Below, piece after piece: positions 3,900 to 61,408 of a stretch of DNA of 64,000 nucleotides. Where the stretch lies: NCBI GenBank assembly GCA_964016885.1, contig OZ024740.1:368404001-368468000 (forward strand), given 5' to 3'. Numbering within the stretch: the first letter of the stretch is position 1; each line of letters begins with the position of its first letter. Source of the DNA: Eledone cirrhosa (lineage: Eukaryota). The translations under genes and the position numbers were made by a program. The notes below the pieces were generated by a model that made no database searches, had not been told where the DNA came from, and was given only the letters and a program-made list of their open reading frames with translations.

Positions 3900-4762
3900 A
3901 CATAAAAGAGAAAATGCATTCTCACCGTGGATATTTTAGAAATCATACGATAATCCTCAGTGTAGGTACTCCATACATAATCTCTCTCTCTATATATATA
4001 CACACATGATTTAAATAATGTAAGTGAACATGGGATAGGTATCAAACCTTGGGTTTCTTTAGCAGTTATCTCCGTTTTCACTTACATTATTTAAGGTATG
4101 TATCTATTTATGGTTAGTTTCGACATCACCTACCATTAGAAATCTCCTATGTTTCTAAAATCTCTAGGATAGGAAGCCATTTTCCTTTTTATTGCAGGCT
4201 GAATATGTCAGGGTAAACAACTCAACGAAATGTAAGTACCTGTTCATTCTATATAGATATCGAAGACCGCAGGATCATCACACTCGCCCAAAATTTGAGA
4301 TGACCGAATATTCAAAAAAGAAAGAAACAAGTAGATCATTCGACTTGAAAGTGGGCTGATTCAACAGAGCGGGCATTTACGATTTACACAGATCTGGGTT
4401 AAATTCACATATTTATCAGTCGAATATGCGCGTTTAGCTGGTGTGCTTTTTTATTTTAGGAGCTCCTCTGTTCGACATTCATCACAAAGATACAAAAGTG
4501 AGAGGCTTGCTAAAATAATCTCCCCAGAGAAACGAATGTATTCGACGAATGAAAATATGCATTTAACTTAAACTTGTCCGATACAACTTGTCCCTCGGAC
4601 TGATTACTCTGCCAAGTACGTATATAAATATATTTTACGAAATTCACTACAATATGCATATATATATATATATAGTGAAAAATTGAACGGGAACAAAACA
4701 GAGAGGCAGTACGAACAAAGGTTTATTAATTTCACGCTCTTGAGAGTGGGGTGGTGGTGGGG

Positions 4763-4796
4763 AACGACGTTTCGGGCATAAGCCCTTCCTCAGGTG
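4763..4796 (-). ncRNA. Minimal type I hammerhead ribozyme in the PLE 3' end (pLTR)
   Basis: Minus strand cac-CTGAGGA-a-GGGC-ttat-GCCC-GAAAC-GTC-gt; palindromic ACGT in place of stem III, as in minimal/dimeric HHRs. Confidence 0.85.
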
Positions 4797-6044
4797 AAAA
4801 GTGTGTGGGAAGAGAGTTCAAAGGGTGTGTAGGGGAGTGGTGGAGAGACATATAGCAAAAACGGGGTGAGAGGAAACGGTGCAAATGAAATTAAAAATGA
4901 AATTAAAAATAAAGGCATGATCAAAATAAAATTAAAATGGGGTAAAACAGGTGGTGGAAGGGTGTGGAACATGTAGGGGTGGTGGCGGGTGAAGTGGGGA
5001 GAGGGAGATAGGAGTGTCCGAGCGGGGAGGGCTGAAGGTGGTGTGTGTGTGTAGGTGTACGTGTGTGTGTGTGTGTGTGTGTGAAAGCAAGGGTTGGGGG
5101 AAGAACGGGGTTGCATGTTCAGGAAGAAGAGTGTGTGGGATGGGGTGTAGGTCGGAGTGTGCGTGCGTGTGTGGATAGAGGGGTAGGGGAGAGGATTCCG
5201 GAGGCTGAATGTGTAAATATGTGGTGGTACGCACGTGTGTGTGTGGTGTTTATGCGTGCTGTGGATGTAAGTGGGGTGTGGGAAAACATTTTCTTTTGCT
5301 TGTATGTCTGGGGTGAGTCGTAAAGGTAATTCCGTAAAAAGATGTGGTGGAATACTGAGTAAAATACTTGGGATGCGGTAGATTCTCGGGATCAAGGTTC
5401 ACATATGTGTAATCCGTGAAGAGATTGGTCGGAAGAGGGGAGATGTAGGTGTGCGCGCAACAGGAAGTGGTCAGAGGGTCAAGGAAGGAGGAGGGTTGTG
5501 TGTCTGTGTGTGCGGGGAGGTGGTCAGAGAGGCATAGCAGCAGTAGGGTAGAATGGTAAGTGAAGAAAGTCGGTGTGTCAGTGTGTGCGGAGGTGCGGTG
5601 GACAGGGGAGAGGATGGGTAGGTGTGAAAGTTGGAGTAGGGAGGGGGTGTGTGTATATTAGTAGAGGTGTTAGTGGGATGTGTGAGTGTTTGAGAAAGGG
5701 TGTGGGTGGATTGGGGAGAGAAGGATGTGGGGCCCGATGGAGGGAGTGTAGTGTCCTGGTGTGTGTGTGTGGTGAAGGGGGTGTTAGTGGGTGTTCGTAT
5801 ACTGGAGGTGGAGAAAGGGTTGAATGCGGGTGAGAGTGGGGGTCAGTGATGTCAGTTGCGTGTAGAGTGGGTGGTGTAAGTGGGTGTGTCTGTTCGTGTG
5901 CTTGGGGTCACGGGGTGTTAGTGATGTTATTTGCGGGGTGGTGGGGTGGAGGTGTTAGTATTGTTAGTTGTGGGTTGGGCGGTGAAAAGGAGGGGTGTGT
6001 TAGTGGGGTTAGTGGGGGATATGTGTGGGGACGGGGGCGGTCGA

Positions 6045-7690
6045 AGGCTAAAGGAATAAGGGTGGGGAGTTCAGGCCGGGGGGAGTGTGGGTCTGTAGGG
6101 TGAAGATGGTTCGTTGTTCGACCCTTAGGAGATTGGCGGGTGTTCCGTGGCATTGGAGTAGGCGACAGACTGAGGTGGTGTGCGGAATGTCGAGGGGCAC
6201 CAAAGTGGCGGGCGATGGGGGAACTACCACCGAGACAAATATCCCGGAGGTGCTCAGTAAATCTGTCCGCCAGGCGACGTCTAGTCTGTCCGACCTAAGT
6301 CGCGCTGCACTCGGTGCAACGAAGTCCGTAGACTAAGTTGGAGGAGGTGCAGCGGAAGGCATGCGGGACAGAGAGAGAGTGGCCGTTGGGACCCTGGAAG
6401 GTGGTGGTGTTGGTGATGTGGGGACAGGTGTTGCAGCGGGGTCTAGAACAGGGAAGGGAACCGGGGGAAGAGAGCGTGTGTTGGGGGGTAGGGAGCTGTG
6501 AACGAGGAGGGTGCGGAGATTGCGTGCGCGTTTGAAGGAGGGGAGTGGTGGGGCTGGGAAGATGTGGGAGGTGGAGAGGTCGGAATGGAGGCGGAGGGAG
6601 AGGCGGAGGATGGTGCGGTGGAGGGGTATGGTGGAGGTGTGGTAGGTGATGGGGAAGGGGAGACGGTGGGTGGGTGTGCGGTCGCGTGGGGTGAGGGTGT
6701 TGGAGCGGTGGACAGCACGGGCGCGGGTGAGAGCGGTGTGGACGAGAGAGGGGGATAACCTCTGCGGATGAAATGGCTGACTAGGAAAAGGGCCTGGGAC
6801 TCAAAGTCATCATCTCGGCTACAGAGGCGGCGGATCCTTAGGAGTTGGGAGTAGGTAATAGAGTGTTTAGTGTGTGTGGGGTGGGAAGAGGTGAAGTTGA
6901 GGTAGGAGTGGGTGTCGGTGGGTTTGAAGAAGGCGGAGGTGACGAGGGAGTGGTGGGAGGGGTCGAAGGCGACGGAGATGTCTAAGAGGTGGACGTGGGT
7001 GGTGGAGATAGAGGTGGTGAAGTGGAGGGAGGGGTGGAAGGAGCAGAAGAAGGAGAGAAAGGAGTCGAGCTGTTCTTGGGTGAGGGTCGTGGCTCCGATA
7101 CAGTCGTAGATGTAACAACCGTACAGTTCGTGCGTGGGGCCGGTGTACTGGTCAAAGATTTGGGCATCAACATGGCCAACAAAAAGGTTGGCATAGTTTG
7201 GACCAATTCTTGTACCCATGGCTACTCCCGTGACTTGTTGGTAAAACTCACCCGAGAAGGAGAAACAGTTGAGGGTGAGGACCAGCTCGGCGAGGCGAAG
7301 GAGGGTGGGGTGGAGGGGATGGGGGAGGGGCGAATGTCGAGGTAGTGTTTAGGACGCGTAGGCCATCGGCATGGGGGATGACGGTATAGAGGGACTTGAT
7401 GTCTAGGGTGAAGAGAAGGGCTGTGGGCCGGGTGGGTAGGTGAAGGACTCGAAAAAGCGCAGGGCGTGGTTGGTGTCGGAGATGTGGGAGGGGAGGGTGG
7501 TGACAAGGGGGGCGATGATGGAGTCGAGAAAGGTGGAGATGAGTTCGGTGGGGCAGTTGCAAGCGGAGACGATGGGGCGGCCGGGGTTGTAGAGTTTGAG
7601 GAGGAAGTAGATGGTGCGGCTGCAGGGGTGTGGGGTGGGGGCTGCGGACAATGAGGTTGTAAGCGGTGGGGGAGAGGAGGGAGTAGACAA
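6045..7690 (-). pseudogene. Frameshifted PLE reverse transcriptase + GIY-YIG endonuclease
   Basis: PGRPIVSACNCPTELIS, LFTLDIKSLYTVIPH, MGTRIGPNYANLFVG, YIYDC (YIDD), LLDISV, KPTDTHSYLNFTSSHP, RCNTCPH, CTSSNLVYGLRCTECSAT*VGQTRRRLADRFTEH, EQRTIFTLQTHTPPGLN. Confidence 0.93.
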
Positions 7691-7716
7691 CGTCTTGGAT
7701 ATATATATATATATAT

Positions 7717-7905
7717 AACGAAGGAGTTGTGGTAAGGAACCAGATGGACTATAACGCACCAGAGTACTCAATACTTAGGGTAGTAGAGTGGGTAATAGGA
7801 AAATGTATGACCCCGACGTCAGAGCTCAAGCCGTTTCGACGGCTATTTCAGTCCAGAAATAGCCGTCGAAACGGCTTGAGCTCTGCCGTCGGGGTCATAC
7901 ATTTT

Positions 7906-7910
<5 letters not shown>
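7717..7910. mobile_element. TA-embedded fold-back element, family H, copy A (hairpin 7795-7910)
   Basis: ~55 bp near-perfect arms around loop 7850-7855; similar to 28220, 39229 and 60909. Confidence 0.88.
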
Positions 7911-7963
<53 letters not shown>

Positions 7964-8129
7964 TGTGTGTGTGTGTGTGTGTGGTTGTGTGCGTGTGTGT
8001 GTATATAGGGGCAGGTGCCAGAGGGAGGGGATTGACACCGTCAAAACAGTAGTCAATATTCAATACACTATAAGTATAGGATCTCTGTTTCATATAAAAA
8101 TCACTTTTACGGGACAAACATTTATCATT

Positions 8130-8172
8130 CCGAGCAGGGAGGGCTGAAGGTGGTGTATATGTGTAGGTGCAC

Positions 8173-8203
<31 letters not shown>

Positions 8204-9645
8204 AATGTGAAAGTTGGGGGAAGAACGAGGTTCCATGTTCAGGAAAAGGTGTGTTTGGAGTGGGGTATAGGTCGGTGTGTGTGCGTGTGGATGTGGAGGG
8301 GTCAGAGGGGGGTAGGGGCTGTGGTAGAGGATTCCGGAGGTTGAGTGTGTATATATGTGGGGCTACGCACGTGTGTGTTGGTGTTTATAAGTTTTGTGGA
8401 TGTAGGTGGCGTGTTTCGAAAAAAGTGTTTGTGAGTGTATGTCCGTGGGTAAGTTCCTAAGGTAGTTCCGTAGAGGGTGTAAAGAGTTGCCGGATATTTT
8501 CCACATTATGGTGTGGATAGTGGGAATGAGGGCCAATGGTGTGTGATCCGTGGTTGTGGCAGTCGGTAGAAGGGAGATGTGGGGTGCGCGCGCAACAAGA
8601 AGTGGTCAGATGGTCAAGGCATGATGAGGGTAGTGGAGAATGAGAGGTGTGCGGAATGGTGGTCAGAGGGTCAAGGCAGGAGAAGGTATAGCAGCAGTAG
8701 AGGAGAATGGCAGGTGGAGAAAGTCAGGGTGTCATTGTGTGCGGAGGGGCGGTGGACAGGGGATGTGATGAAAGGTGGAGTGGGAAGGGGGATATGCGGG
8801 GGGATGGGGTGTGCATTAGTAGAGGTGTCAGTGGGATGTGTGTGTGGGGAAGGGGTGTGGGTGGAGCGGGGAGAGGGAGATAAAAGGTGTGGGGGTCGAT
8901 GGAGGGAGTGTAGTGTACTGTTGTGTGTGCGTGTTTGGATGGGTGTGTGTGGTGAAGGGGGTGTTAGTGGGTGTTAGTATACAGGTGGTGGGGAAAGGGT
9001 TGAATGCGGGTGTTAGTGGGGGTTAGTGGGGGTCAGTGGTGGCAGGGTGTGTAGATTGGGTGGTGTAAGTGGGTGTGGGTGGGTGCGTGTGTTCGTGTAC
9101 GTGGGGTCGAGTGCATGTTAGTGGTATTAGTTGTGGGGTGGTTGGAGTGGATGTGTGGGTGAAGGTTACTGGTGGTAGTAGGGTGTGTGGATAGTGTGAG
9201 TGCGTGTATATATGTACGGTGGGTGTGTGCGTAAGAGGGGGGGTAGTATTGTTAGTTGGGGGAGGGTGGTCGGTGGTAGGGTGGGGGCGTTTGTATGTTT
9301 AGTTGTGGAGTGGGCCAAGGAGGTGGGTGGTGAAAAGGAGCAGGGTGTTAGTGGTGTTAGTGGGGGATATGTGTGTGTGTGTGGGGGGAAGGAACAGGGC
9401 GGTCGAAGGCTAAATGAAAAGGGGTGGGGAGTTCAGGCCGGGGGTAGTGTGGGTCTGTAGGATGAAAATGGTGCGTTGTTCGACCCTCAGGCGGGTGTCG
9501 GGTGTTCCGTGGCATTGGAACAGGCCGCAGACTGTGAGGTGGTGCGCGGAATGTCCAGGGGCGCCAAAGTGGCGGGCGATGGGGGAAATCCCGGCGAGAC
9601 GAATATCCCGGAGGTGTTCGGTGAAACGTTCCGCCAGATATTCAC
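8130..9645 (-). mobile_element. Second, diverged copy of the Neptune-type PLE 3' region (end of GIY-YIG + 3' UTR)
   Basis: Colinear similarity to ~5020-6270 (e.g. gggtgttccgtggcattgga, ccaaagtggcgggcgatggggg, aatatcccggaggtg). Confidence 0.88.
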
Positions 9646-9875
9646 GGAGAGAGAGAGAGAGACAGAGAGAGAGACAGAGAGAGAGAGAGTGTGTGTGTGT
9701 CTGTATGTGAGATGTTAAAAGGGTGAGAGTGAATATATATATATATTATGTGTGTAAGATAGGTTAAGCAATCTGTGATAAATAATCTCTCATATAAGCA
9801 CTTAAGCACTCGACGTTTTTATACCATTTCTCCTATGTGTATGACTGGGAATATGTATAATGATTGTTTCTTCCT

Positions 9876-9985
9876 TAGGCACAAGGCCAACAGTTTTGTG
9901 GGGAGGGGAGGGTCGATTAAATAGACCCCCGTGCATTATTGGTATTTTATTTTATCAACCCGTAAGAATGAAAGTCAAAGGTAAC
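9876..9985 (-). mobile_element. SINE fragment (same family as 2186 and 20265)
   Basis: ggcacaaggccaaca...ggtattttattttatcaacccgtaagaatgaaagtcaaag. Confidence 0.75.
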
Positions 9986-10584
9986 TAATAAATAGACAAA
10001 TGATTCACGAGAATTTATTTTGTTACGATATAGCTGTTACACGATATCTGTGGTACTACAGAGGATCAACCCTTAAAACAACTTGCTCAATATATCAAGA
10101 GATTACGTGATTCATATTTATAGAGATGCACTCTCTCCCTAATGAAAGTCTATCTGAAAGTCCTTATGGAAGAGGGGAGAACTTGTGGCTTCTGATTACC
10201 AGTTAGATAAGGTGTGATAACCTTTAATTATACAGGTGCAAAGAGGACAGAAGGGGTTGTGTTTAAGGTTGGGAAAACTATTAATCGGAGTGGAACGAAA
10301 TTGTAACATATTTTCCTAAACAATGTATTGGGTGCTATATAGGTTAGAGCTTCGTAGAAGCAATTTGCCGTTTTGTTCCTTTTGGGGTGTTAGAAACATA
10401 TTATAGCAAGAAACGTTTTATAATGAGGGGCTGGGGATGAGCCCAGAGGATAAGTTTGTTGATTTCAGTTCTCTAGATGTTTTACAATTCATTATATCAA
10501 GTTCATGAAACTAGGGATAAAATTGGTAGGTATGTGTTGCTTCACTCTGTGTGTGTGTGAACACGTTGTGTCTCGGAATCTTAT

Positions 10585-16261: not shown

Positions 16262-16640
16262 ATACAAGTTCCTGGTTGGGTTGTTGTTTCATTGAGGAAC
16301 TGGAATCATATGATTCCAGTGATTCCAGTTCCTCAATGAAACAACAACCCAACCAAGAACTAGGCATATCTGAGTATTGACAAAGTTATACACCTCAACA
16401 ACATGTAAACTCGTCTCTACCACACTAATTCGGACTGCCTGAAGAAGTCACAGCCAAAGATGGCTGTCACTGAAATATATATAGCAGTAATAAACGAAGC
16501 CAAATTTTAATCATTTGACTTATTTATTTTATTTTATTTTACATTACTCCGGAATAACCAAACCAACCTGCGCACTTCGTCGAGTGCTCCAATCTGCATA
16601 CTGAGGTGTTGGTACACAACCAACATATACCCAAAATGTA
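16262..16640 (+). mobile_element. Non-coding HHR cassette in a TA tract with a 5' fold-back hairpin (16267-16361)
   Basis: gttcctggttgggttgttgtttcattgaggaactggaatca pairs with tgattccagttcctcaatgaaacaacaacccaaccaagaac; HHR and AATAAA downstream. Confidence 0.75.
16434..16488 (+). ncRNA. Type I hammerhead ribozyme
   Basis: ACTGC-CTGAAGA-agt.ACAGCCA-aaga-TGGCTGT.act-GAAA-tatat-ATA|GCAGT-aataaa. Confidence 0.88.
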
Positions 16641-17595: not shown

Positions 17596-17809
17596 AACTA
17601 TTGTCATCTTGACTGACGGTTTGAACTTTACAACACCACCTGCCTCTTTCAGGTCAACTACCAAACCTACTACCATCTACAACTGACCAATGAGAATCAA
17701 GACTATTCCTGCTGACAACATTAAATTATTCCTAACAAGCTCATATGTCCCAAGGCTCTGATACCATCAATACTATAAACACAGAGCTGGCATATCTAAG
17801 AACTGACTA

Positions 17810-17865
17810 ACTGCCTGATGATGTCATAGCCATTCAGTGGCTATCATCGAAATATATATAGCAGT
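17810..17865 (+). ncRNA. Type I hammerhead ribozyme (relative of 16434) in a TA-flanked cassette at ~17592-17910
   Basis: ACTGC-CTGATGA-tgtc-ATAGCCA-ttcag-TGGCTAT-catc-GAAA-tatat-ATA|GCAGT-aaataaa; stem II covaries with the 16434 copy (ACAGCCA/TGGCTGT vs ATAGCCA/TGGCTAT). Confidence 0.88.
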
Positions 17866-18028
17866 AAATAAAGGATTATGAGTTCATGCAATTCACTTAT
17901 TTTTCGTCACTATATATATATATATATAATTCTGGGGCATGAGAGTGAGATCCATCATCTCGACAGTAGTAGACAAATGATGATAATGATGATATATATA
18001 TGGATATGGATATCAATGGACATGAAGA

Positions 18029-22621: not shown

Positions 22622-24689
<2,068 letters not shown>

Positions 24690-28219: not shown

Positions 28220-28405
28220 AACGAAGGAAATGTGGTAAGGAACCAAGTGGACCATAACGCACCAAAGTACTCAATACTTAGGCTAGTAGAGTGGGTAATA
28301 GGAACGAGTAGGACCCCGACGGCTGAGCTCAAGCCGTCTCGACGGCTAATTCTCTAGAGAATTAGCCGTCGAAACGGCTTGAGCTCAGCCGTCGGGGTCC
28401 TACTC

Positions 28406-28410
<5 letters not shown>
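28220..28410. mobile_element. TA-embedded fold-back element, family H, copy B
   Basis: Hairpin centred on tctctagaga (28351-28360); same unpaired 5' extension as 7717. Confidence 0.88.
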
Positions 28411-30067: not shown

Positions 30068-30627
30068 TTTCTGAATTTGTTTAGCAAGATTCTTTATCTG
30101 AAATCGTGTGTTGAAACTGATATTGTTATACTTTGGGAGGGTCATGTTGCCAATAAGAAACACACGCACCAGTTACTTTCACTTCAATTTAATATAATAA
30201 ATTTATAAATTTAGGAATTTATAAATTTATAAAGTTCTGGTTGGTTGGTTGGTTCCACAACCAGATAGTTGTTTATATATTGTCAAAGTTCTTTCGTCAC
30301 ACATTATGTGACCTCTTCAGTGACTGGGGATTCTTTTCTTTGTTTTTGTGCCTCTTCTTTGTTCTGCCCTACGCCATTTTGTTTCTGAAACAAAATGGCG
30401 TAGGACAGAACAAAGGAGAGGCACAAAAACAAAGAAAAGAGGTCACATAATGTGTGACGAAAGAACTTTGACAATATATATAAACAACTATCTGGTTGTG
30501 GAACCAACCAACCAACCAGAAATTTATAAATTTATAAATTCCTAAATTTATAAATTTATTATAATAAATTGAAATGAAAGCACTGGTGCGTGTGTTTCTT
30601 ATTGGCAACATGACTCTCCCAAAGTAT

Positions 30628-30636
<9 letters not shown>
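30067..30636. mobile_element. TA-flanked palindromic HHR element (arms ~30120-30385 and 30387-30636)
   Basis: Apex ccattttgtttc-t-gaaacaaaatgg; relatives at 59971-60210 and 61641-61822. Confidence 0.88.
30282..30324 (-). ncRNA. Minimal hammerhead ribozyme
   Basis: Minus strand GTCA-CTGAAGA-g-GTCACA-taatg-TGTGAC-GAAA-gaa-CTT|TGAC; the mirror arm has lost the CTGA-containing segment by deletion. Confidence 0.8.
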
Positions 30637-36972: not shown

Positions 36973-37037
36973 TATATTAATAAATGGAAACTATATTTAT
37001 AAAACTATATTTATTTCATAACTGATCTATATTATAT

Positions 37038-37098
37038 TTTAATCTGATGAAAGAGCACCATAATTTGCTATGGTGTCCTTGAAATATGTATAATGAAA
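37038..37098 (+). ncRNA. Hammerhead ribozyme inside a small palindrome (arms 36973-37020 and 37091-37140)
   Basis: CTGATGA-aag..CACCATA-atttgc-TATGGTG..ctt-GAAA-tatgt-ATA|atgaaataaa. Confidence 0.78.
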
Positions 37099-38536
37099 TA
37101 AATATGGTTTTATAAATATAGTTTCCATTTATTAATATATTGTATTTTTACTCCAAAAATGTGTTGAGTGCTTTATATCAGTTATTTGCTTGTTGTATCC
37201 CAACAAATTAAATATAACTTTTACATATATATAAATATATATATACATATATGTGTGTGTGCGTGGGTATGTGTGTATATACATACATATTGATATATGT
37301 AAACATACATTCATAAACATACACAAAATCACACCCAGAGTGATATACATTATGAGGTTATATTTAATATATTACTTTGAACTCATATAGTATGCATAAC
37401 ATAAAAAATTATACCTTTTAACTGTTATGTATAAACTCACATGTATTGTACAATAGATATCTGGATATGTTGCTTTAATCTACCTTGATTATTTTGCATC
37501 TGTGTTGATGAATATGTTACTTCATTCTTTTTGTTATTAGTCCGCTAACCTATTTGAGTAAGGTATATTTACTAAATTTTGTTTCATTGGAAATTTAAAG
37601 CATCTTTACTTAATAGTGTGAAAATGGATTTAGTTTCATTAGTGTCGTACGTGCAAAGACATATTCCCTGTCTTGTTAGTTGGTGTGTATACGGAGTTGT
37701 TTTATTACTGTCATAATATCAAATAATCTGGTACTGATGTCGGAGAAATTTATATCGATGATGGGACAATGGTGAAGTATAACGCGTTTTGATCGCTAAA
37801 CTTATCGAACATAGATGTAGTTGCTTAACGGTTCTAAGAGTAACTGTATTGATTCAGGTGTAATTAGTTTCAAAATTAATCCTGAAGTAATAGTAAAAAT
37901 ATATTTGAAGAACATTTTCCCATCACCAGGATACATCAAAAATAGAATCTGCAAAACATACATCAATTAGACAACGCAATATTTAGATGACAAAGTAAGT
38001 ATGAAAGAAGTAACTTTCCAGGCGGAATATGTTGTAGCCGACAAAAATATAGAATTCGTAACTCGTGAATCTACAATGCAGAAACATTTCAAGATAATAC
38101 AGTCCATGAATCAAAATTAATTGATATCATAATCATCTTATACTCACCTCTACAATAAGTGAGATGAAATATAGAGACATTTTCGATTTCAAATCAAATA
38201 ACTTGAATTATGACAGAGATGGCACATTGGGATTAAACCGTAGAATGTAGTAAGAATTTTGTACTTTAAGAATGTTCAATTAGATGATGTGAGTCGATCT
38301 TATTAGGGATTAAAATATTCTTATGAAGAATGTGCTAATTATAGCTAATTATACACGCCAACATTTGTCTCAATTTTTTCAGATTATAAAACCGATTTTG
38401 AAAGAAATTAGGAACATTAGTGTCTCAAATTTAACAAACGACTGGTACGGAAATATGAAATCTTTCACATAAATATTTCTGCTTTGAAATATACACTTCT
38501 ATAACCTTAAAAATTACATGAAATGAATGTGTATAT

Positions 38537-39228: not shown

Positions 39229-39230
<2 letters not shown>

Positions 39231-39419
39231 CAAATAGGGAGTGGAAGATACCAGGTCGACCATAACACACGGGTGTACTCAATACACAGTATTAGATTGG
39301 GCAATAAGAAAAGAGTCAAGAACCCGAGGGCTGAGCTTCGGCCGTTTCGACAGCTAGATTTTAACGATTCGGATCTAGGTGTCAAGACGAGGTCAGCCGT
39401 CGGGCTCCTGACACTGTTC

Positions 39420-39421
<2 letters not shown>
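39229..39421. mobile_element. TA-embedded fold-back element, family H, copy C (diverged)
   Basis: gaccataacac...gtactcaatac...cccgagggctgagcttcggccgtttcgacagctagat-loop-atctaggtgtc...cagccgtcggg. Confidence 0.75.
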
Positions 39422-39725: not shown

Positions 39726-39728
<3 letters not shown>

Positions 39729-40324
39729 ACAACTATAAATTGATTAACATATAAATAAACATGAATAATCACAGGAGAAAATGTTTACAAGTGTGTAAGC
39801 ACACATAGCTAGGTAGGTACCTAGAACTTCAAAAAATAGATACCTTATAATATGATTAATCTTCCCTGTATATATTCCATTGGATATAGATATATCAATA
39901 CGGCTCCTTAATTGTAAAGCTAACTCTGTTGAAAGGACTTGACTGTTGCTTCTAGTTGTCGATAACCCTATTCACGCCACTGGGACGAAGCTGGTATGAT
40001 GTGTGTATTTCTAGTAGATACAGTACGTGTTACTGGCCAGTCGCTGATTTGAACATAATGCGTAAACATAGATCGCTGGACTTCTTCGTTGTTGAAAATC
40101 CAAGTACCGGCATATGCCGTTTACCATTCGATTAATTGGTGAAATATATTTCTTTAATGGAATATATACAGGAAATATTAATCATATTATAAGGTATCTA
40201 TTTTTGAAGTTATAGTTAACTTTATTTAATTACCTACCTAGCTATGTGTGCTTACACACTTGTAAAAATTATCTCCTGTGATTATTTATGTTTATTTATA
40301 TGTTAATCAATTTCTAGTTGTTAT
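39726..40324. repeat. Inverted repeat (arms ~39726-39880 and ~40156-40324) next to a TA tract
   Basis: caagtgtgtaagcacacatagctaggtaggta pairs with tacctacctagctatgtgtgcttacacacttg; possible decayed HHR at ~40090-40152. Confidence 0.88.
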
Positions 40325-40725: not shown

Positions 40726-40956
40726 AAATGAAGTGATTCCGTCGGAGAGGTCCAGGAAAAAAGAGTGCTGTAAGTAGGTGACAAAGCTTAATAGTTATGT
40801 AATAAACAATATAAGATAAATATTATGTTGTTTATTACATAACTATATATATATATATAATTGGAGGCTTAGTAAAATCGAATGTTTGGCGGTGTGCAAG
40901 CAAATTCGACCAACGATATGAATGAGTTAGCAAAGCACTCGACAAGGGTAGGTCCT

Positions 40957-41072
40957 TAGAATAATAACATACGTTTAAATAGCTTGACAAATTCAACATT
41001 GTGGCAGGCGGAATCTAACAAATATTACCAAAGTAACGAAAGAACTAACAGGTTGAAAAAATTAAGTGGTTG

Positions 41073-41122
<50 letters not shown>

Positions 41123-41239
41123 CAACCGCTTAATTTTTTCAACCTGTTAGTTCTTCCGTTACTTTGGTAATATTTGTTAGATTCTGCCTGCCACAATGTT
41201 GAATTTGTCAAGCTATTTAAACGTATGTTATTATTCTAA
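40957..41239. repeat. Palindrome centred on a (TA)n tract
   Basis: ~118 bp arms 40957-41075 and 41120-41239 with few mismatches. Confidence 0.92.
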
Positions 41240-44071: not shown

Positions 44072-44600
44072 CTGATCAGCATGTCAGCAGATAGGCCAGT
44101 CACTTATTTGAATTTGGCAAATTCAGCCATTAATCGCTAGGATACATGAGAGTGACTAGCATATCTGCTGACATACAGATCTGGCTGCTCAATGGGTCTG
44201 CTAATATGCAAATCAGGCCGATCAGACAGTGTATATTTTAGAAAATATCATATATTTTCAGTAGCCCTGACTGTTGGCAGGTAGCCATTATACTGCACTG
44301 ATGAAGGGTAATCACCCACAAACATTTGTGTCTGCAGTTCTGTTTACGTGCCAACACAAGAGCGAGGATGATGTGTTCATTCTACTGACATGGATTAAAA
44401 GTGGCTGTTTGCATGATTGCAAACGAATCGAATATTATCATCAATATTCGAAAAACTCAGATTACATTTATTGTATTCAGCCATGTACAGCGTTAAGCTA
44501 TTTGATATATATACATATATATATATATGTATATATAACAAATAGCTTAACGCTGTACATGGCTGAATACAATAAATGTAATCTGAGTTTTTCGAATATA
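44072..44600 (+). mobile_element. HHR cassette ending in a TA-centred palindrome (44445-44600); family copy at 53447-53920
   Basis: HHR at 44292-44338: ACTGCA-CTGATGA-a-GGGT-aatc-ACCC-a-cAAAC-atttgt-GTC|TGCAGT (GAAA mutated to CAAA). Confidence 0.8.
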
Positions 44601-59738: not shown

Positions 59739-59955
59739 TATCACAGAAAAAAAAGAATCAGTGTTACGACGAAAGGAATTTATTGGACATATTACAAATG
59801 TTTCTCGGGCTAGAAACATTTGTAATATGTCCAATAAATTCATTTCGTCGCAACACTGATTCTCTTTTTTCTGTGATAACATACTTTGCTCTACGAGGGC
59901 ATTGAGTGGTCATACGGCATACCGCATACGGACGCTTTAAGCATCCAACACCAAT
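59739..59955 (+). mobile_element. Fold-back element: palindrome 59739-59878 with apex just 5' of GAAAC-ATTT-GTA, plus an unpaired 3' extension ending in (TA)n
   Basis: aatttattggacatattacaaatgtttct-cgggct-agaaacatttgtaatatgtccaataaatt. Confidence 0.85.

Positions 59956-60908: not shown

Positions 60909-61408
<500 letters not shown>

Follow-up and report, generated by a model that had tools for sequence, protein, structure and literature searches.

Short head-to-head ends of a (TA)n-targeting Penelope-like element in Eledone cirrhosa and their possible origin from two separately primed cDNAs

Four hairpins in the window analysed here, a 64,000-nucleotide stretch of the Eledone cirrhosa genome, are short head-to-head 5'-truncated ends of a Penelope-like element (PLE) that targets (TA)n. 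As judged from the sequence, such hairpins would arise when both strands of the target are primed separately, the two cDNAs run off at an initiator-like start and their ends are joined, a reading to which we assign a probability of about 0.6. The separate priming of the two arms is the part of it that we consider most probable.

RESULTS

Four related hairpins with unequal arms

An earlier note on this DNA had described four TA-embedded hairpins, and all four were found at their places (Table 1), mutually related and flanked by (TA)n or other simple repeats. The note called them palindromes; they are real hairpins, but asymmetric ones, usually with one arm of ~130 nt and one of ~60 nt. The complementarity of the inner arms is 94.5% in copy 1 and 98% in copy 2, and the arms of copy 4 match at only 80%. 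The half-hammerhead that had been read in the arms (GAAAC-GGC...GCC-GTC/GGGGTC) is intact on the plus strand in copies 1 and 2 and nearly intact there in copy 4 (GGGCTC), but not in copy 3, where an intact GAAAC was found on the minus strand only. Stem II and loop II of copy 3 differ from those of the main subfamily. The short arm of copy 1 extends inward beyond the long arm by 6 nt, so that neither contains the other. This copy is inserted in a GC-rich, strongly skewed stretch of the minus strand (about 4720-10000), which ends in a minimal hammerhead at 4793 and is probably another PLE.

Table 1. Hairpins of the palindrome family in the window and features of copy 1
Feature	Position	Strand	Description
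Copy 1	7717-7909		133-nt arm on minus, 60-nt arm on plus
Copy 1, long arm	7717-7849	minus	PLE 3' end, from the distal (long) end at (TA)n to 1 nt into loop II
Copy 1, short arm	7850-7909	plus	Position read against the parent ribozyme; proximal (short) end precedes (TA)n
Copy 1, first base of short arm	7850	plus	A of the initiator-like site (position -7)
Copy 1, stem II 3' strand	7857-7867	plus	
Copy 1, GAAA	7868-7871	plus	Followed by stem III
Copy 1, GUC triplet	7888-7890	plus	
Copy 1, stem I 3' strand	7891-7895	plus	
Copy 2	28220-28409		
Copy 2, long arm	28220-28353	minus	
Copy 2, short arm	28358-28409	plus	
Copy 2, junction	28352-28359		Filler giving a perfect 8-nt palindrome
Copy 3	39229-39420		Long arm on minus, degenerate short arm on plus; older, member of the sister subfamily
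Copy 4	60909-61184		Two long arms
Copy 4, left arm	~60909-61037	minus	
Copy 4, right arm	61046-61184	plus	

Other fold-back elements occur in the window. A second PLE family (16267-16530, with a relative at about 17740-17900) has a CUGAAGA hammerhead whose TATATATA stem III is palindromic; its inverted junction lies ~125 nt upstream of this ribozyme. In a third PLE-like palindrome (30124-30631) the minus arm carries a CUGAAGA hammerhead (30320), a short deletion has removed the 5' half of the core from the plus arm, and the apex is ~57 nt upstream of the ribozyme. Further fold-backs were seen at 1-592, 22749-24564, 36973-37139, 39726-40324, 40956-41239, 44448-44595 and 59742-59875; in two of them (40956 and 44448) the arrangement is reversed, with an (AT)n run at the apex.

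A 20-mer from the arm had 56,449 exact matches genome-wide (3.0 Gb) and its backwards control none, which places the family far beyond chance. Exact short palindromes, with stems at most 30 nt apart, numbered 11,246 genome-wide (backwards control, 0), and the motif of the sister subfamily had 5,239 exact matches. Palindromic stubs far outnumber long copies, and the sizes form a continuum from short palindromes up to full-length copies that code for a reverse transcriptase (RT).

The parent element and its hammerhead ribozyme

Complete ribozyme copies sit upstream of a probable RT-endonuclease ORF, and at locus L094 the order is pseudo-LTR (pLTR) with ribozyme, ORF, 3' UTR and pLTR; pLTRs with hammerhead that derive from partial tandems were seen at L094, L095 and L169. 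The ORF carries a YRDD motif, a four-Cys linker whose spacing differs from the CX2-5CxxC of PMC8557442, and the residues VIYQC...TYIGLT followed by R, H and CxxC, which are GIY-YIG-like by eye, with no profile or fold match. A structural model of the L091 ORF, built with a 120-sequence alignment as input, reached a pLDDT of 90.5, and its five best matches in the PDB were all telomerase RTs (TERT; E about 1e-8); a single-sequence model of the parent ORF (pLDDT 33) was set aside. No match was returned by a Pfam search with four pieces of the ORF or by a PDB sequence search with the ORF alignment, and a homologue search returned 727 proteins, with no informative names among the 120 matches listed. 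Taken together, the YRDD motif, the Cys-rich linker, the GIY-YIG-like motifs and the TERT-like model point to an endonuclease-type PLE encoding a telomerase-like RT; by its anatomy the element appears Neptune-like. The arrangement of an inverted 5'-truncated copy with a tail at one end is present in 54 of 58 short palindromes and also in long inverted pairs. Elsewhere in the genome (G000:C3:214146640-214147766), five tandem units ~273 nt apart carry the tail/ORF-start motif and are possibly a retrozyme-like array of the same PLE family.

The note had traced the arm to a type I hammerhead of the kind found in PLE pLTRs, of which it is the 3' half; complete parents with a matching stem I support this. 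Non-palindromic copies read ACCCC-TTGANAA-G, stem II, a loop of ~33 nt, stem II, GAAA, stem III, GUC and GGGGT, and thus contain the core nucleotides and the three stems of a type I hammerhead. Two exact patterns gave 255 and 1,024 such parents genome-wide, counts that are a lower bound, as further variants exist. In the predicted fold of the parent region (z -2.37) the three hammerhead stems form and the core stays unpaired, and 90.5% of the cells in the hammerhead alignment are paired; the double changes, found in 4 of 21 pairs, lie in stem II between the two subfamilies and represent essentially one lineage split.

The core of the parent is UUGANAA, the U3-A8 variant, and not CUGANGA. The earlier note had proposed a search for non-palindromic parents with a CTGANGA half: parents with a matching stem I do exist, but their 5' half is TTGANAA. 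The search with CTGANGA itself gave 50 matches, and the 30 examined by eye included no parent: they were fragments of other PLE families, mirror arms with mutations, or filler at junctions. Among 48 complete copies, obtained with a pattern that could not return G8, U3-A8 was present in 41, with all four bases at N7, and C3-A8 in 7. U3-A8 is a described variant of PLE hammerheads (PMC4209133). An Rfam scan of the window showed no hammerhead among the 150 listed of 174 matches (E up to 1); those listed were to microRNA, snoRNA and similar models, below the gathering score. The C3-A8 core mismatch marks a subfamily whose ribozymes are otherwise complete, some of them ORF-linked (L120, L190, L197, L199 and L201), and which are predicted to be weak or inactive. 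At L025, near 1500 on the minus strand, the inverted arm skips from the stem II 5' strand to stem III by a template jump within the ribozyme at a shared CGGCT.

Position of the apex in loop II

The apex had been equated with the parental stem II. It is in fact the junction of the two arms, which falls in loop II 0-14 nt before the stem II 3' strand, and the apparent stem is created by the inversion itself. In the 50 listed of the 11,246 palindromes, the left arm is a mirror of the 3' end of loop II, without the parental 5' strand and loop. The gap limit of that search pattern excludes a full parental loop II, and the real test was a separate pattern for the fold-back product, in which the mirrored GTTTCGA is joined to the parental 5' strand and loop in three of the loop variants. 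It returned two matches genome-wide, both with a mirrored loop, and none in the examined loci. Since a product of folding back on stem II would retain the parental loop of ~33 nt, and no true one was found, this route is not supported.

In a sample ordered by position, the end lies no more than 12 nt from the stem II 3' strand in 52 of 72 elements, and 15 of 89 arms carry the ribozyme 5' half, passing through the whole ribozyme. The clustering of inner ends is thus real, but RT stops before the stem II 5' strand. The palindromes lack a 5' half and have a mirrored inner end, and the half that is missing is TTGANAA, not the CUGANGA of the note. Cleavage by the ribozyme was rejected as the cause of the stop, since it would occur ~40 nt downstream of the apex; splicing at the AG dinucleotides of loop II was rejected too (no constant upstream exon among 58 junctions).

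Outer ends and the relation between the arms

The outer ends of the palindromes fall at two fixed sites separated by about 70 nt. In a set of 58 clean short palindromes, 54 combine a long with a short outer end, three an intermediate with a short end, and one has two short ends; a looser parse, which counts long inverted pairs as two elements and in which three junctions were mis-parsed as 14 nt, gave one long and one short end in 43 of 53. Within the 54, the short-ended arm reached further inward (by at least 2 nt) in 24 and the long-ended arm in 19, and the two agreed within 1 nt in 11. In the first 24 of these, as in copy 1, neither arm contains the other, which excludes for them that one arm was copied from the other in cis after target priming. 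A long arm consisting of tail only, which barely overlaps the short arm, was seen at L115, L116, L138, L150 and L152, and in long copies (for example L096, L097, L099, L100 and L106) the inverted arm is the 3'-terminal 0.3-1 kb and not a mirror of the junction. In the 58 palindromes, 46 different junctions were counted, which have overlaps of 1-4 nt or fillers of up to 23 nt; one junction recurs seven times among the 58, and the commonest of the family is present in both main subfamilies. Both arms belonged to one subfamily in 32 of 34 pairs, compared with 7.6 on shuffling, and one RNA or one source locus would therefore usually serve both arms.

Exceptions to this rule point to two templates. 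The arms of copy 4, both long, score 190 and 218 against other loci and 149 against each other, and each carries linked diagnostic sites of a different subfamily. In 3 of 30 loci picked by an unrelated pattern (L031, L049 and L058), the palindrome family and a second PLE family meet head to head; each ends where it normally does on the inner side, and (TA)n lies outside. Copy 4 and these three chimeras would suit two separately primed cDNAs; against this, the two-family chimeras could reflect later deletion between neighbours. Simple self-priming in cis of a target-primed cDNA is not supported, as it fails to account for the 24 non-nested palindromes, copy 4 and the cross-family chimeras. At L033 and L034, the matched arm is preceded upstream by an apparent endonuclease-coding end of other PLE families, to which it is attached head to head; these are possible further two-family insertions.

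The stop site and a predicted transcription start

Both arms stop in one window despite starts 70 nt apart, indicating that the stop is a property of template position. It falls on the A of TYAGT (TCAGT or TTAGT) inside loop II, and these pentamers resemble the animal initiator consensus. The sister subfamily, with a different loop II, has the same TTAGT stop 18 nt before GAAA, which 3 of 29 arms pass. The second PLE family, represented by few copies, mostly ends near CAGTT ~125 nt upstream of its own hammerhead, so the coincidence of stop and stem II is not general. The inner ends spread over 0-14 nt, a few reaching 19-26 nt; because half of the 58 palindromes had been selected for having an arm that extends to -7, the mode at 7-8 is inflated. 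At about -29 lies a TATA-like run that is not shared by the sister subfamily.

In the first 100 of 1,631 matches, counted by hand, the base before the stop A was a non-parental G in 71 and A in 29, compared with G in 7 of the first 100 of 4,126 matches one base further in. On inspection of 40 loci by an exact 7-nt test, 24 G and 10 A were unexplained by the other arm and 6 G were explained, while by eye a few more of the G are microhomology; in 5 of the 40, the partner arm also ends at -7 with a G. The excess of G at the stop A is modest after this inspection and could be non-templated addition by RT. An extra G from the cap marks complete L1 insertions (PMC11702581), and Drosophila Penelope has an internal promoter with its main start site in the 5' region (PMC2377424).

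Among 30 loci in which the pLTR continues into the ORF, 9 are without the ribozyme 3' half; of the 21 that have it, 6 begin in loop II and 15 span the whole ribozyme, and long cDNAs therefore need a read-through RNA or a template jump. The features of the TYAGT stop suggest that it is probably the element's transcription start. Contigs from three of four sequencing runs had loose (AT)n ends at both outer ends and a ~11-16-fold step in depth at loop II; contig depth cannot rank the parts, the runs may be the assembly's own sample, and this pattern was not counted as evidence.

DISCUSSION

In the reading that we prefer, a protein of the element would nick both strands of a (TA)n target, and two separate cDNAs would be primed, one per strand. 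The two outer ends would correspond to two RT start sites, by analogy with those of the anole PLE in vitro. Both cDNAs would usually be copied from one RNA or source locus and occasionally from two RNAs, and RT would stop on reaching the A of TYAGT, the capped 5' end of the RNA. An RNA starting there would lack the ribozyme 5' half and would not cleave itself in cis. The cDNA ends would be joined by microhomology-type repair, with trimming and filler, and the head-to-head products would be dead-end copies. The broader proposal that two RT start sites make PLE inversions by double target priming, with the inner end marking the capped 5' end of the RNA, is a tentative one, to which we give slightly less than even odds. 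If it is true, the element's transcription start is written into the genome in tens of thousands of copies, as a 'strong-stop'-like product, and a start inside the hammerhead leaves half a ribozyme in the mRNA and a whole one in the read-through RNA.

Alternatively, a longer cDNA, or an antisense RNA as proposed for rotifer PLEs, might snap back near its end, and the endonuclease might then cut the hairpin at two tail sites before integration. Self-priming has been proposed in PMC3846280 and the tail ascribed to resolution by the endonuclease in PMC8557442, and the scheme would explain why both arms share a subfamily (32 of 34) and permit long and short ends in either order. It cannot yield copy 4 or the cross-family chimeras, it is awkward for zero-spacer palindromes and for the loci in which both arms end at -7 plus G (5 of 40), and in long copies the snap-back would have to span 2-3 kb; we regard it as unlikely, though as the strongest competitor. 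The model of the earlier note, in which RT reads through stem II and this natural hairpin then serves the cDNA as the point of fold-back, has in its favour that the apex is near stem II and that the parental stem II strands are complementary. With no true product genome-wide for three of the loop variants against 11,246 palindromes with a mirrored loop, it is refuted as the main route and we give it almost no weight.

Separate priming could be combined with a structural or protein roadblock in loop II on an RNA that continues upstream, as the 15 of 89 position-ordered arms that traverse the whole ribozyme, the scatter of inner ends over about 14 nt and the identical distance from the stop to GAAA in both subfamilies might suggest. 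The stem II 3' strand has already been copied when RT stops, however, the second family stops ~125 nt from its ribozyme at a similar motif, and there is an excess of extra G at the stop A, so a roadblock seems improbable to us. The palindromes could also be non-autonomous elements that amplify themselves, copied whole from a few master hairpins in the manner of MITEs or SINEs. The very high copy number and the one junction that recurs 7 times in 58 speak for this; the 46 distinct junctions in 58, the occurrence of the commonest one in both main subfamilies, the asymmetric ends and the continuum to full-length RT-coding copies make it very improbable.

How inverted structures of PLEs form has been named as an open question (PMC8557442). 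The palindrome family offers cheap statistical tests of it, namely the long and short ends, the non-nested arms and the arms of mixed family, which favour two primings. It also predicts the transcription start to within a few bases, and if that start lies inside the ribozyme, this would explain why the mRNA of a PLE is not cut. Annotation will mistake such hairpins for MITEs or microRNA precursors, and the parent hammerhead is missed by searches for CUGANGA. MITEs are short, non-coding, hairpin-forming, TA-flanked and present in high copy number; the palindromes differ from them in having no symmetric fixed termini, a variable apex and a parent that codes for RT. The ordinary-MITE alternative raised in the earlier note is thus contradicted by the asymmetric ends and by an RT-coding parent, with no fixed symmetric terminal repeats shared with a transposase parent.

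Comparison with known systems

The note had considered its route from ribozyme to fold-back element undescribed. As regards the layout this does not hold: inverted pLTR palindromes, together with the hypothesis of self-priming, are already in PMC3846280, and the inverted 5'-truncated copy with a tail and the preference for (TA)n are in PMC8557442. The layout is thus of a known, published kind; population evidence on its formation was not found in the literature searched. For double priming or a start-site stop in PLEs, no description was found in that literature, mostly non-subscription papers without their supplements, and the accessible part of PMC13282606 does not mention palindromes or hammerheads.

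The closest known counterparts of the present insertions are those of the Adineta vaga Pen families (PMC3846280) and of endonuclease-bearing PLEs of all clades (PMC8557442), which share the inverted 5'-truncated copy at the 5' end, the junction palindrome, the extension at one end, the (TA)n target and the pLTR hammerhead. The extension is ~70 nt here and 30-40 nt there, stubs outnumber long copies here and the inner end is sharply fixed. The palindromes at inverted pLTR junctions were interpreted as products of self-priming (PMC3846280), whereas the arm statistics in E. cirrhosa argue against it. The Cercyon PLEs of Schistosoma (PMC4209133) resemble the parent in their type I pLTR hammerhead, U3-A8 replacing C3-G8 and a palindromic loop III; compared with their minimal form, the stem III of 4-5 bp and the loop II of ~33 nt make the hammerhead described here not minimal. 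Non-LTR retrozymes are built of tandem units that all carry a whole type I hammerhead (bioRxiv 10.64898/2026.07.22.740005); they were rejected as a match, the palindromes being single, inverted and without the hammerhead 5' half.

Two systems bear on the mechanism. For PAc, the Poseidon PLE of Anolis carolinensis, both strands were nicked and extended in vitro and a dimer was predicted (PMC11167929). Much as is proposed for the family described here, it has two RT start sites just downstream of the hammerhead that bound the tail, an AT-rich target and cutting and extension of both strands, and ribozyme cleavage is unnecessary for insertion; it belongs to another PLE lineage, and the accessible text offers no model for head-to-head inversions or for the end point of the cDNA. 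Twin priming of L1 (PMC11702581) likewise involves a second RT reaction primed from the reciprocal target end and an inverted junction with microhomology, and there an extra G indicates a complete 5' end. The cDNAs of L1 cover adjacent, largely non-overlapping parts of the RNA, whereas here the two overlap for the most part and extend to one and the same inner end, so that the product, unlike that of L1, is a palindrome.
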